Origin: an uncultured Ruminococcus sp.
Lineage (GTDB): Bacteria > Bacillota > Clostridia > Oscillospirales > CAG-272
DNA length: 64,000 nucleotides
NCBI GenBank assembly: GCA_964558485.1
Contig: CAZLED010000003.1
Location: 4,571 to 68,570 of the forward strand
Reading direction: 5' to 3'
Made by a program: the position numbers and the translations under genes
Part shown: in pieces, positions 6,742-36,400 of the stretch
How the letters are laid out: each line of letters starts with the position of its first letter
Numbering within the stretch: position 1 is the stretch's first letter
The notes under the pieces: model-generated
What the model was told of the DNA's origin: nothing
The model's input: the letters and a program-made list of their open reading frames with translations, nothing else
The model's database searches: none

Positions 6742-7701
6742 TCACTCCACATCCGGTACTACCTCAGCCGGGGGTTCGTCCAGCTGCCAGGGATTGCGGA
6801 AGATGCTCTTCAGATACCGCATGGCAGAGGCATAGTAGTACCCGTCGCAGATCCGCTCGTCCAAAACGAAGGTATAGTCAATGTAGGATTTGCGCTTGAC
6901 GACTCCCTGTGCGTCCGGCTCATAGACACGGCGCTTGGCACCAAAGGCAAAGAACACCGGGCAGGTACCAAAGTCGTACAGGTGGTGGTAGATGGGGGGA
7001 ATGCCCAAAGAGCCCATGGACGTGATGAAATAGGAGCAGTGGAAGGGGCTCAGGTCGGTGAGGAACCGGGGGATCAGCCCAAAATAGTCCATGGCACGCA
7101 GCAGTGCAATGACCGCCTTCAGCAGCAACGCCGGGATCAGGCTCAATACCTTGGCGGTGCTGTCGAAGCTGCCGCCGGGATCCTCTCTGTACCCCACGAT
7201 CTTTTCGTTCAGGGCATTGTATACGTCTTCGATGGTGGCGTCCGGCAGCAGACTGATCTTCACCACGGTGTCCGGGGATTCCAGCGACATTTCCTTCTTG
7301 ATGGTCAGAGACACATCCACGTGCCGCTTGGTCCACACCCGTTGTCCCCGGATAAATCGGTTCAGAGCAGGACGAGCCGCCACCAATCGGATATAGGCTG
7401 CGATCATGATGTGCATCATACTGATGTTGGTCATGCCGGCCTGCTGCTTTTCCTTCATATATTTTTCCAGCTTCTCCACATCCAGGGAGTCGGAGATAAA
7501 GTTCTGGGAGCCTACCCGGTCCACCATGATAAAGGGGATCATAGCGGCCATAGGCGAAATGCTTTTGACACGCCGGGCTTCCTTGATCTTCTTTTGCTTT
7601 TTCGGCTTTTTCGGTGTCGTAGTATCCGGCGCAGCGGTTTCCGATAGATCCTGTTCCTTTGGCATGGCTTCGTCTGTTACAGTGGTTTTCGTGATGTCCA
7701 T
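6742..7701 (-). CDS. 2-oxoacid dehydrogenase E2-like acyltransferase catalytic domain protein, no lipoyl domain
   Basis: P.LNRF, FITSMGSLG and DERICDG (canonical DHRxxDG). Confidence 0.7.
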   Translation of the reverse strand: MDITKTTVTDEAMPKEQDLSETAAPDTTTPKKPKKQKKIKEARRVKSISPMAAMIPFIMVDRVGSQNFISDSLDVEKLEKYMKEKQQAGMTNISMMHIMIAAYIRLVAARPALNRFIRGQRVWTKRHVDVSLTIKKEMSLESPDTVVKISLLPDATIEDVYNALNEKIVGYREDPGGSFDSTAKVLSLIPALLLKAVIALLRAMDYFGLIPRFLTDLSPFHCSYFITSMGSLGIPPIYHHLYDFGTCPVFFAFGAKRRVYEPDAQGVVKRKSYIDYTFVLDERICDGYYYASAMRYLKSIFRNPWQLDEPPAEVVPDVE

Positions 7702-7890
7702 TGGTATACCTCTCCCAAGGTGACCGTGACCAGGCCCACCTTGCTATTCTCATATTTCGCATCTATACAACCATTATACCATGGATCGTCAAAAAATGCA
7801 ACCGTTTTTTTCCCCATGGAGAAAATCAAATGTGCGGTCGTCCACATAGAAAACCCACAATATTTTTGCCGATACCCTTTGCCAATACTC

Positions 7891-7919
7891 TTGACAAGGC
7901 GGCAAAAAGGTGCTATAAT
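7891..7919 (+). promoter_or_regulatory. SigmaA promoter of the candidate antitoxin sRNA
   Basis: TTGACA-17 nt-TATAAT with extended -10 TG. Confidence 0.85.
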
Positions 7920-7924
7920 AGAAA

Positions 7925-8080
7925 CAACAAGAGGTGGTCGTCAAACCACCCCATGTTGCTGGTAGCCCAACAAAACGGCTGCCACACTTATGTACAAAAT
8001 TAGGAATTACGAGTTGGAAGTTATCGCTTCCGTCTCAACCCAGTGAGCCATTCTGTGTGGGACAGACGGCTCACTTTTTC
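7925..8080 (+). ncRNA. Candidate type I antitoxin sRNA, about 155 nt
   Basis: Own promoter, three hairpins (GGTGGT/ACCACC, TGGTAGCC/GGCTGCCA, GGAAG/CTTCC) and terminator GTGAGCC...GGCTCAC-TTTTT. Convergent with the peptide ORF. Confidence 0.65.
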
Positions 8081-8190
8081 ATTGTATCATCGTAATGAAA
8101 TTCCTTGTACAACTTGTAGCTATACCAAACGATAGCTAAAAATGCACCGATGCACTTCAAAACGTAGTATGCAACTTCTAAAGCAAACAT
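8071..8190 (-). CDS. Small hydrophobic peptide, candidate type I toxin (39 aa)
   Basis: Manual translation MFALEVAYYVLKCIGAFLAIVWYSYKLYKEFHYDDTMKK. RBS GAAAGGGGG upstream. Confidence 0.7.
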   Translation of the reverse strand: MFALEVAYYVLKCIGAFLAIVWYSYKLYKEFHYDDTMKK

Positions 8191-8330
8191 TTCTATGTGA
8201 CCCCCTTTCACGAGAAATCCCGTGAAGAAAGCACTCGAAACATCCATCACCTCCTCTCCGGCAGAAACGAACTTTCTTGCACGGTTCAGGGGACAGCCGT
8301 CTTATATGTTTGTTGGATTATCCATGGGAT

Positions 8331-8360
8331 ATTATAGCATATATTGGCGGTATTTGTCAA
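8331..8360 (-). promoter_or_regulatory. SigmaA promoter of the candidate toxin mRNA
   Basis: Minus strand TTGACA-18 nt-TATAAT with extended -10 TG. Confidence 0.75.
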
Positions 8361-8531
8361 TGGAAAATGGAAATATAATTCCTGCAAAATGGATCCAACA
8401 TGGCAGAAGTTTCTGCGCACGTCGGATCCTTTTTATACCCGTACGTTTCGGGTATAAATTTACAATCATGTCACAAAATCCATCTTGTACTATGCTATAA
8501 TGGTGTCACCACAGACGCTGGATAAAGGTCT

Positions 8532-8795
8532 GTGCCTATCCCATTCGCTCCATCTCACAAGCGAACGACCGGGCGCAAAATCGTCCGATCAAGCCGCATT
8601 GGTGCCGGTGCCGACCATGGCGTTCTCAGAGTTGCAGAGGATGCCACGCCGGAAGCCTTCACTTCGCGGAACGTTTTTTTTGTGTGCTGCAGAAGTTTTC
8701 TGCTGCAGAATTTTACTGTTGCAGATGTATCTGTTGAAGATTTTTCTGCTCAGAATGTATTCTGCCAACGAAGGAGGGGATTTTTTCTTTTATGA
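8532..8795 (+). promoter_or_regulatory. Candidate leader-peptide / attenuator region of the ABC exporter operon
   Basis: GTG-start 87-codon ORF whose TGA overlaps the ATPase ATG. Hairpin plus T8 at about 8650-8681. Extended -10 at 8493-8501. Confidence 0.4.
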
Positions 8796-9782
8796 TCGAA
8801 TGCGAACACATTTCCAAAACCTTTCGGGTTGCCAGACGAAATGGCGGCATGGGCGCAGCGGTGAAGGCGCTGTTCCGGCGGGAATACACCGACCTGAAGG
8901 CCCTGGACGACATTTCCTTCACCATTGCCGACGGAGAGATGGTGGGGTACATCGGACCAAATGGCTCCGGCAAAAGCACCACCATCAAGATCATGAGCGG
9001 CATATTGCACCCGGATATGGACGGCGGTATCTGCCGGATCGATGGGCGTATCCCCTGGAAGGAGCGGCGAGCCCACGTGCAGCACATCGGTGTGGTGTTC
9101 GGCCAGCGGTCGCAGCTGTGGTGGGACGTGCCGGTGCTGGGATTCCTTCGAGCTGCTCCGGGACATCTACCAGATCGATCCGGTTGTGTATCGGCGCAAC
9201 GTGGACGAGCTGACCGAATGCCTGCAGCTGTCCGAGATCTTGCGTACCCCCGTGCGGCAGCTTTCCTTGGGCCAGCGGATGCGGTGCGAGATCGGTGCGT
9301 CGCTGCTTCACGATCCGTCCATCCTCTTTTTGGACGAACCTACCATCGGTCTGGATGCGGTATCCAAGATCGCAGTCCGGGACTTCATACGCCACCGGAA
9401 CGAAGCGCACGGTACCACGGTGATCCTGACCACCCACGATATGCAGGACATCGAAGCCCTGACCAAACGGATCCTGCTCATCGGCAAGGGGCATATCCTG
9501 CTGGACGGCTCTCTGGATACGCTGAAAAACCAACACGCCGAGGTACGAAAGATCACCGTCACCCACACCGGCAGCTGCACCGAGACCGAGCCACTACCTG
9601 TAGGTCTGACTGTGCTGGAGACACAGCCGGGGCGTACCGTATTTGCCGTGGATACCACCGTGCTGGGCGTGTCGGCTGCCATTGGCGTGCTGTCGAACCG
9701 GTTGGAGATCACCGACCTGTCGGTCACCGGTGCTACGGCAGAGGAGCTGGTGGTGTCGCTCTACAAGGAGTTTGCCATATGA
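8792..9782 (+). pseudogene. ABC exporter ATP-binding subunit with an apparent +1 frameshift near 9139
   Basis: Walker A GPNGSGKST is in one frame. LSLGQRMR, ILFLDEPTIGLD and the H-loop are in the next. An extra G in CTGGGATTCC breaks VPVLDSFEL. Confidence 0.85.
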
Positions 9783-35887: not shown

Positions 35888-36400
35888 AACCAAGGGTAGG
35901 TTGACATATAGGAAAACATGGTTACGTTTCCGGGTGTCGCTACAAGAACGATATTGTACGCCGAATGTAGGGCGGGATGACAACTACTTGACAGAACCAA
36001 CAATTTGGTATTCAACATCCCGCCGTCGAATGTGTTAGACCGTACGGTATGGGTATTGGGTACACGTTCGTCCTATATCAAAATGATTTTGTATCCCACA
36101 TTGGTATCGGCTGCGCAAAATCTCAAATCAAAATGTACGTTTGCACAATACCAATATAATACAGACATAGACGTTCGGCGGCGGGATGTCGTCAGCCAAG
36201 AGTGATGAGAATACCAAGGGTAGGTCATCCCGCCCTACTTTCGTTTTACCAAAACCTTGTCGCATCAAATCCCCATATCGGAATGCACAAAAGCGGTACG
36301 TCTGGGCAGCCTGATCAAAAAACGGGATTACCAAAGCAAACGAGATTTTTCTGCTGATATCGCCCCTACAGTGAATAGTGGAGTTTTCCCAACTTCGCCG
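35888..36400. repeat. Dispersed REP/REPIN-like element, copy B
   Basis: Perfect 15-bp inverted repeat GTAGGGCGGGATGAC at 35967-35981 / 36224-36238 and the 48-nt core at 36177-36224. Colinear with the reverse complement of copy A. Confidence 0.85.

Follow-up and report, generated by a model that had tools for sequence, protein, structure and literature searches.

Anatomy, Conservation and Transcription of a Type I Toxin-Antitoxin-Like Locus in an Uncultured Gut Ruminococcus

Clostridial toxin-antitoxin (TA) systems of type I are characterised only in Clostridioides difficile, and a large homology screen found almost none elsewhere (PMC6563280). A full-text literature search brought up no paper in which type I TA is connected with Oscillospiraceae or Ruminococcaceae. 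Here, we report the computational analysis of a type I TA-like locus in a 64,000-nucleotide stretch of DNA from an uncultured Ruminococcus sp. (GenBank assembly GCA_964558485.1, contig CAZLED010000003.1, positions 4,571 to 68,570 of the forward strand). This whole stretch is called the window, and positions are counted from its first letter. An initial annotation, made from the letters without database searches, had proposed two convergent promoters, a small open reading frame (ORF), a leader element and an antisense-RNA terminator; all were located at the positions it gave, and the locus anatomy is confirmed.

The whole locus lies in a 1.1-kb intergenic region (7702-8791; GC content, 44%, versus 54% for the window). 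Its features are as follows, first those of the toxin mRNA and then those of the antisense small RNA (sRNA).

8360-8331, minus strand: toxin-mRNA promoter, TTGACA-18-TGcTATAAT, 12/12 match to the sigma-A consensus, extended -10 (TG)
7922-8324, minus strand: predicted toxin mRNA, ~400 nt, with a 134-nt leader, a 39-codon ORF and a ~150-nt 3' untranslated region (UTR)
8288-8324, minus strand: 5' arm of a long-range 5'-3' helix, UCCAACAA and GACGGCUGUC, paired with 7960-7988 in the minimum-free-energy fold
8255-8246 within 8241-8259, minus strand: upstream Shine-Dalgarno (SD)-like element, AGGAGGUGAU, with a 10-nt anti-SD match and two AUGs
8201-8231, minus strand: anti-SD/SD hairpin, in which CUUUCUU (8231-8225) pairs with AAGGGGG (8207-8201); predicted sequestration of the ribosome-binding site
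ATG 8190 to TGA 8073-8071, minus strand: toxin-like ORF, 39 aa plus stop, MFALEVAYYVLKCIGAFLAIVWYSYKLYKEFHYDDTMKK
7960-7988, minus strand: 3' arm of the long-range helix, in the mRNA 3' UTR; its complement is sRNA hairpin 2
7952-7922, minus strand: toxin-mRNA intrinsic terminator, 9-bp stem (7952-7931), then the U-run UUGUUGUUU
7891-7919, plus strand: antisense sRNA promoter, TTGACA-17-TGcTATAAT, 12/12 match to the sigma-A consensus, with TG extension
7926 to ~8082, plus strand: candidate antitoxin sRNA, ~155 nt, non-coding, four hairpins, fold z = -4.66
7926-7957 (H1), 7960-7984 (H2) and 8011-8036 (H3), plus strand: hairpins of the sRNA fold
7985-8010, plus strand: AU-rich stretch, single-stranded in the sRNA fold
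8042-8075, with T5 at 8075-8079, plus strand: sRNA terminator, overlapping the peptide stop codon and the last two Lys codons

The two convergent promoters, called near-consensus in the initial annotation, are in fact perfect and carry the TG extension. Perfect sigma-A sites number six in the window (0.02 expected by chance), two of which are these promoters. Predicted transcription starts (+1) lie at ~8324 for the minus-strand mRNA and ~7926 for the plus-strand sRNA. The mRNA terminator (stem and U-run) abuts the sRNA +1, and therefore all ~155 nt of the sRNA find their complement in the 3' UTR of the mRNA; the predicted complementarity also takes in the last ~3 codons of the ORF. At the sequence level, this antisense gene has a promoter and a terminator to itself and would yield an RNA complementary to the toxin mRNA. 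The multi-hairpin plus-strand RNA ending over the peptide stop codon is predicted much as first proposed.

The leader, given earlier as ~135 nt with a second SD-like element, measures ~134 nt and contains that element. From its two AUGs, an in-frame ATG at 8247 would give a 58-aa product, and an out-of-frame upstream ORF (uORF) of 11 codons runs from ATG 8243 to UGA 8210-8208, where the UGA overlaps the true SD. The latter (AAGGGGG, 8207-8201) stands 10 nt upstream of the ORF start at 8190. The 39-aa peptide has one hydrophobic stretch of transmembrane (TM) grade (best 19-aa Kyte-Doolittle window 1.85, residues 3-21) and is modelled by AlphaFold2 as a single helix (residues 2-38, pLDDT 86), which bears out the single TM helix first read from the letters. 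Peptide and mRNA sizes agree with the definition of the class (hydrophobic or TM peptide of 20-60 aa on a short mRNA of 150-400 nt; PMC8594479).

Orthologue, remnant and phage relatives

An exhaustive phmmer search of 1.84 billion protein representatives (50%-identity library) returned two matches, P0001 and P0002. P0001 (157 aa) is the same locus read through the TGA stop, presumably under a code with TGA as Trp, and was set aside as an annotation artefact. P0002 (40 aa, MFALQIAFYILKIIGAFLAIVRHSHKLYKEFQNDSDSMKK) is 72% identical, and its first Met aligns with the Met of the 39-aa ORF. Contig L084 carries the P0002 gene in the chromosomal position that the window locus also occupies (ABC transporter, locus, 2-oxoacid-dehydrogenase-like acyltransferase, fucosidase), with 89% amino acid identity between the two acyltransferases. 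Between the window ORF and the P0002 codons there are 13 synonymous and 12 non-synonymous differences (dN/dS 0.10; excess synonymous, binomial p = 1e-4), a pattern which indicates that the peptide ORF is a genuine protein-coding gene under purifying selection. A lack of conservation, which the initial annotation had named as a ground for rejecting the locus, was not what we found.

Gene callers annotate the 58-aa form on identical contigs. This 58/59-aa product was rejected: its N-terminal extension is broken by 1-nt and 2-nt indels between the window and L084, and its SD-to-ATG spacing is 2 nt. Because the extension is not conserved as protein and its ATG sits so close to the SD, we take the product to be the 39/40-aa peptide.

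The L084 locus is 78% identical overall to that of the window, with 49-83% identity in the intervening sequence between promoters and terminators and just 49-58% in the body of the 3' UTR. Both L084 promoters score 12/12, the hexamers of the toxin promoter being identical and the sRNA promoter counterpart perfect. Both terminators are present, that of the toxin mRNA as a structural equivalent with changed letters. A 16-nt leader block (AGGTGATGGATGTTTC) is 100% identical, and the uORF is conserved in neither length nor sequence (11 codons in the window versus 27 in L084). The predicted L084 sRNA has the same four-hairpin layout (z = -4.31), and comparison of the two sRNAs gave no conserved ORF. 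Candidate trans pairings of the sRNA with the toxin SD or with a 5' GGGACAG motif were not conserved in L084 and were dropped.

The nearest GTDB species representative (L004; acyltransferase 93% identical) keeps only the last codons (..NDDAMKR, then stop) and the 3' UTR region, and is without the toxin promoter, most of the ORF (5' half included) and the sRNA promoter. The decayed 3' fragment occupies L004:580-800, and ~4.3 kb of extra DNA (L004:789-5000), including a 503-aa ORF of unknown function, precedes the acyltransferase gene. Apart from this remnant, no copy of the locus was found beside the homologous acyltransferase gene in 80 related species.

Searches for further relatives of the peptide were negative. 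The tBLASTn and paralogue check suggested by the initial annotation gave no paralogue in the 64-kb window and, with tblastn, no match in plasmids or phages; word-indexed protein searches found nothing beyond P0002, and back-translated peptide scans of viral, genome and metagenome collections found no relative. The sole metagenome match (L085) was the TM segment of a 384-aa glycosyltransferase and was judged spurious, and the 16-mer AGGTGATGGATGTTTC occurred in viral contigs in ordinary SD+ATG contexts only.

Relatives of the RNA scaffold were recovered from phages. In DNA metagenome contigs at 80% likeness, 45-75 nt round the sRNA terminator (8007/8034-8079) reach up to 20x the depth of the flanks; contigs of this region are many, diverge on both sides and decode to other ORF ends (WWLMMLVFAAKK, VAITIWAYNKDTMKK, TVCQVVDKFIDTMKK and others, each followed by a stop). 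Phage relatives were retrieved from IMG/VR by an exact 17-mer taken from the locus (AAAAAGTGAGCCGTCTG), which gave 28 loci, 25 of them at E < 1e-3 with a window+L084 profile; the other three (L171, L189, L196) were chance matches. The scaffold is present in at least 24 of the IMG/VR phage loci. The relative-bearing contigs are genuine temperate phage (endolysin, tail proteins, dUTPase, integrase, tape-measure protein). Searches of GenBank phages (50,697 records; tblastn, blastn) and of plasmids found nothing similar.

The locus family is defined by a conserved post-stop hairpin (GTGAGCCGTCTG). Independent of the search key are its promoters, 5'/3' pairing elements, SD+AUG element and small hydrophobic ORF ending in KK and a stop. 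In the phage relatives, the hairpin has a toxin-side consensus promoter 272-286 nt upstream of it and, facing that promoter, another 136-193 nt downstream. The convergent consensus promoters of the family stand ~420-470 nt apart. A 5' GACGGYUGCC pairs with a 3' GGCARCCGUC, and the leader forms a covarying hairpin whose loop displays a GGAGG SD+AUG, after which comes a second SD. Each phage locus carries a different small hydrophobic ORF, and its last codons form the U-run complement of the sRNA terminator. All of these features are present in the window locus.

Two phage contigs, L188 and L190, link the scaffold to a named toxin family. In both, a remnant of the family adjoins a locus encoding MVTYSDLFEFGLLIIAVISFCFNINKKN, which matches Pfam Hol_Tox PF16935 (29.2 bits, E = 8e-7). 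The arrangement is a tandem "TA island" (L188:1595-1974, L190:9446-9825), the Hol_Tox locus with its convergent sRNA promoter standing directly upstream of the promoterless remnant.

Most phage-member ORFs (L173 at ~1040, L175, L169, L172) have no in-frame AUG, GUG or UUG at a usable SD distance; instead, AUU, AUA or AUC stands 9-11 nt after GGAGG, within a conserved UACAUAAUYACU. In L195, a normal AUG occurs at nearly this position. The AUU, AUA and AUC codons suggest non-canonical initiation as a further brake in the phage members.

Folding and transcription of the toxin mRNA

The toxin mRNAs of the window (z = -6.85) and of L084 (z = -6.37) were folded independently and gave the same architecture. 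The predicted unpaired probability is 0.11 for the SD core and 0.06 for the AUG. In L084, the anti-SD/SD pairing is kept with different letters (CCUUUUUC with GGAAGGAGG), and in both orthologue folds the toxin AUG region pairs with the invariant leader block GAUGUUUC. The outer 8-bp helix of the long-range interaction differs between the two by compensatory double changes at 3 of its 8 pairs, and the inner helix (GACGGYUGCC:GGCARCCGUC) is kept in 12/12 family members, with covariation between UA and CG. Across the 12-sequence alignment, 92.6% of consensus-structure cells are paired, compared with ~40% once partners are slid as a control. Double changes occur at 11 pairs, and 1 of 500 shuffles attained that number. 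Fold and covariation together predict the translation-blocking mRNA structure of the class, with SD sequestration and a 5'-3' interaction. As modelled, the toxin mRNA would be translationally inert, its SD locked by the anti-SD, its AUG paired to the leader and its 5' end closed onto the 3' UTR.

Three gut metatranscriptomes, available as assembled contigs, carry the locus. Their RNA contigs cover 7949-8311 at 65x (X9), 8027-8301 at 110x (X18) and 8071-8314 at 479x, with depth at or below 5x beyond ~8314; other genes in the first 20 kb of the window stand at 0-20x in the two higher-depth runs. The common right-hand edge of the contigs (8301-8314) falls 10-23 nt short of the predicted minus-strand +1. 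The library is stranded: where adaptor sequence meets a contig beside a gene whose orientation is known (nine junctions), read-1 adaptor adjoins the 5' side of the RNA, and by this rule the X18 contig is minus-strand RNA with its 5' end at 8301. The peptide-coding strand is therefore strongly transcribed in vivo. The 8301 end, joined directly to the read-1 adaptor and 23 nt inside the predicted transcript, lies immediately 3' of an A/U-rich internal loop of the 5'-3' helix and may be a processed 5' end. Left-hand contig ends vary, at least one being explained by graph branching with an L004-like variant.

The initial annotation had put forward RNA sequencing of both strands as a check. In the assembled contigs, minus-strand RNA was found and no transcript specific to the plus strand emerged; the sRNA region 7926-8026 appears in one of the three assemblies at most. 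That one is the X9 contig (7949-8311), an assembled contig which could include the sRNA.

With layout and fold in hand, a reading of the locus as two independent convergent genes, a small protein and a trans-acting sRNA whose overlap is incidental to shared bidirectional termination, can be weighed. Terminator sharing is common among convergent genes, and the conserved single-stranded AGGAAUU in the sRNA could be a seed for trans targets. The overlap, however, is the entire ~155-nt sRNA and extends beyond the terminator; the convergent spacing is near-constant across phage relatives with unrelated ORFs; and the sRNA-complementary region holds the 3' arm of the covarying helix of the mRNA. We consider independent genes very unlikely.

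Neighbouring features in the window

The region 8484-8700 (plus strand) is the leader of the ABC-transporter operon (ATG 8792) and lies behind a TGcTATAAT promoter. Within it, a 58-nt block (CCATTCGCTCCATCTCACARGCGAACGACCGGGCGCAAMATCGTCCGATCAAGCCG, ~8555-8611) with two hairpins hardly varies among the window, L004 and L084, in contrast to the diverging sequence on either side. Rfam gave no match to it at E <= 10, and the block is a candidate undescribed cis-regulatory RNA. Between the toxin promoter and the ABC-leader promoter, 8432-8458 is a terminator-like perfect 10-bp inverted repeat (TTTATACCCG/CGGGTATAAA) followed by TTT. A variable ctgcagaa-type repeat region (8651-8760) directly precedes the ABC start codon; there, the RNA contigs from two runs have a replacement for 108 nt (in X18, 105 nt of other sequence), and one adaptor junction implies minus-strand RNA over 8687-8776. 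The ABC ATPase gene (8792..) is frameshifted at 9139-9143 by one extra G (ctgGGGattcc to "ctgggattcc"; ctg gat tcc expected). Gene calls on an independent contig (L001) split it in the same way, and an X18 RNA contig (2.4x) is without 1 nt at 9139, which restores the frame.

The transporter bears on another explanation of the peptide, as a leaderless bacteriocin or secreted signal peptide that the adjacent ABC transporter would serve. The peptide is a small aromatic-rich amphipathic helix, and the operon, of ABC-2 type, is 600 bp away. Its net charge, though, is ~+1; a separate promoter and a conserved leader serve the transporter, which L004 retains though it has lost the peptide gene; the ATPase gene of the transporter is frameshifted in the window; the phage relatives have no such transporter nearby; and bacteriocin loci are not marked by an antisense RNA or a sequestered SD. 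An exported peptide is, in our judgement, extremely improbable.

Elsewhere in the window, a dispersed repeat occurs at 1860-2178 and again at 36204, 57839 and 61635. Its 61-nt inverted arms (1896-1956 and 2095-2155, 87% complementary) enclose an AT-rich 138 nt, and its core (GATGAGAATACCAAGGGTAGG) occurs five times in the window (0 expected). Very short RNA contigs at the repeat reach 300-676x, and no Rfam family matches it. It looks like a repetitive extragenic palindromic element or a miniature inverted-repeat transposable element, or could be a multicopy structured RNA.

Interpretation and comparison with known systems

The kind of locus described here, type I TA with a 3' overlap, is well known. 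The initial annotation had likened the layout to txpA/RatA and bsrG/SR4 of Bacillus subtilis, and every feature of that likeness that sequence can test is present. Gram-positive type I families have the antisense RNA on the 3' side (PMC8594479). Both B. subtilis systems share with the anatomy predicted for the window locus convergent sigma-A promoters, a membrane peptide of 30-60 aa, an antisense RNA on the 3' side overlapping the ORF end (PMC8594479), a sequestered SD in the toxin mRNA, with RNase III-type decay as the action of their antitoxins and the proposed one of the window sRNA (PMC3834814, PMC6563280), and prophage-borne relatives (PMC10730256). The window locus differs in that its peptide has no likeness to Hol_Tox/TxpA and its sRNA belongs to no Rfam family. 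Its candidate sRNA also lies fully inside the mRNA 3' UTR, with ~3 codons of overlap, and would have as its target the 3' arm in a long helix between the 5' and 3' ends; unlike with SR4, modelled sRNA binding leaves the SD unchanged.

In hok/Sok (plasmid R1) and aapA1/IsoA1 (Helicobacter pylori), the full-length mRNA is inert, as the window mRNA is predicted to be, through long-distance 5'-3' interaction and SD sequestration (PMC6733600, PMC5416894, PMC9841398), and the possible upstream reading frame is reminiscent of mok, with the difference that the window uORF is unconserved between the orthologues. Their antitoxins pair at the 5' region, inside the mRNA, whereas the window sRNA would pair with the 3' UTR, and there is no peptide homology. 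The C. difficile systems, CD2517.1-RCd8 and CD0977.1-RCd11 among them, are alike in belonging to Clostridia, in their convergent overlapping genes, in a hydrophobic N terminus with a charged C terminus, in prophage association and in having gone unannotated (PMC7699646, PMC6563280). Their toxin tails are Lys-rich, whereas the window peptide has a tail of mixed charge and its host is an uncultured Oscillospiraceae. Homology to CD2517.1 or CD0977.1 was found neither by phmmer (1.84 billion) nor by tblastn/blastn (50,697 GenBank phages).

The Hol_Tox locus in L188/L190 is near-identical in its sRNA promoter and alike in overall layout, and its 3' element GGYRRCCGUC can pair with the 5' leader. 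The window peptide differs in having no PF16935 match, and the likeness is at the level of the RNA scaffold, by eye, at one locus. Through its PF16935 match, this neighbour ties the scaffold to a type I toxin family that is already recognised.

Family searches agree with this picture. Neither the window peptide nor P0002 matched Hol_Tox PF16935 at E <= 10, the L188 neighbour peptide serving as positive control, and no consistent match to Fst/Ldr, Hok, TisB or other type I toxin families was found in Pfam, NCBIfam or PHROGs. An apparent ungapped likeness to TisB (charges at 5, 12, 26 and 29) was rejected by BLASTP, which gave no alignment, and by Pfam. Rfam holds 13 type I TA families (PMC8594479); cmscan, the check suggested for the sRNA, found none of them at E <= 10 on 7000-9500 or at the gathering threshold on the whole window, in line with novelty. 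The earlier suggestion that the family may be new thus holds for the peptide and the sRNA (no Pfam, NCBIfam, PHROG or Rfam match) and is refined for the scaffold, which belongs to a larger phage locus family. New are the families to which peptide and sRNA belong, the clade of the host and the particular three-way arrangement of 5' end, 3' UTR and sRNA.

We consider the locus probably to be a chromosomal type I TA-like module, its toxicity and RNA antagonism being predictions. The promoter at 8360-8331 (minus strand) would make the ~400-nt mRNA for a single-helix membrane peptide of 39 aa, and the convergent, equally strong promoter at 7891-7919 (plus strand) the ~155-nt non-coding RNA. The sRNA would pair with the mRNA 3' UTR to form an RNase III substrate. 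Because it shares the sequence logic of the mRNA 5' arm, it would also displace the mRNA 5' end from the 3' arm, and the freed end would be exposed to 5'-dependent RNases (RNase J or RNase Y). RatA acts through RNase III (PMC6563280), and SR4 has a dual action on decay and translation (PMC3834814). When the mRNA was folded with the sRNA-bound region held open, 7 of 8 family members released the 5' end, with SD access as before. Because modelled binding frees the 5' end and leaves SD access unaltered, we favour an sRNA that would act mainly through mRNA decay, as do RatA and SR4, rather than through SD occlusion. Where the sRNA is lost or outrun, the mRNA could be activated by processing (the 5' end at 8301 is a candidate) or by ribosome loading at the upstream SD/uORF, and the translated peptide would enter the membrane, with arrest or death of the cell as the outcome.

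Several observations weigh against a TA module, and some of them suit its chief rival, in which the peptide is a small membrane protein without toxicity and a cis-antisense RNA tunes its expression. It might then be a phage-derived "moron" (superinfection exclusion), a holin/antiholin-like modulator or a membrane-complex regulator, with the same anatomy and no relation to TA. The toxin mRNA is among the most abundant transcripts of the organism in vivo and does no evident harm, which fits an inert mRNA and equally a harmless protein. The peptide tail is weakly basic, of mixed charge (net +1) and without a strong cationic character, and one Lys at the middle of the TM segment is conserved. The 5' two-thirds of the sRNA (7926-8026) is absent from two of the three assemblies, possibly through small-RNA loss in library preparation, graph branching or low abundance. 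Only two full-length orthologues of the window peptide are known, and the invariance of the family hairpin is partly ascertainment because the phage relatives were found with a 17-mer from it. The rival also draws on vertical inheritance at one chromosomal site in two species and on relatives that lie near phage lysis and tail modules. Yet the layered silencing of SD, AUG and 5'-3' closure, with a predicted full-length antisense RNA, is a hallmark of products that are kept off. The sister species L004 has lost the toxin promoter, the ORF 5' half and the sRNA promoter together, and the bona fide Hol_Tox type I toxin in L188 uses a visibly related scaffold. On this evidence we think a non-toxic protein unlikely, and a TA module remains our preferred interpretation.

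More tentatively, and with more doubt than conviction, the locus could be a chromosomal member of a widespread, undescribed type I TA family of gut Clostridia and their temperate phages. In such a family, the sRNA would mimic the mRNA 5' end, compete for the 3' arm and unlock the mRNA for 5'-dependent decay, the SD+AUG of the leader loop would be an activation or standby site, and several phage members would start at AUU, AUA or AUC.

Type I TA modules are almost invisible to annotation, and this locus adds a concrete case, expressed in a gut commensal of the uncultured Oscillospiraceae, with a peptide that has no known relatives. Its RNA scaffold is a usable search key for more gut-phage modules where peptide searches fail. 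If the peptide is toxic, the module could be used for counter-selection or containment in gut Clostridia that are hard to manipulate, and the locus, if the proposed mechanism holds, would be a model for antisense control by competition between 3' UTR and 5' end.

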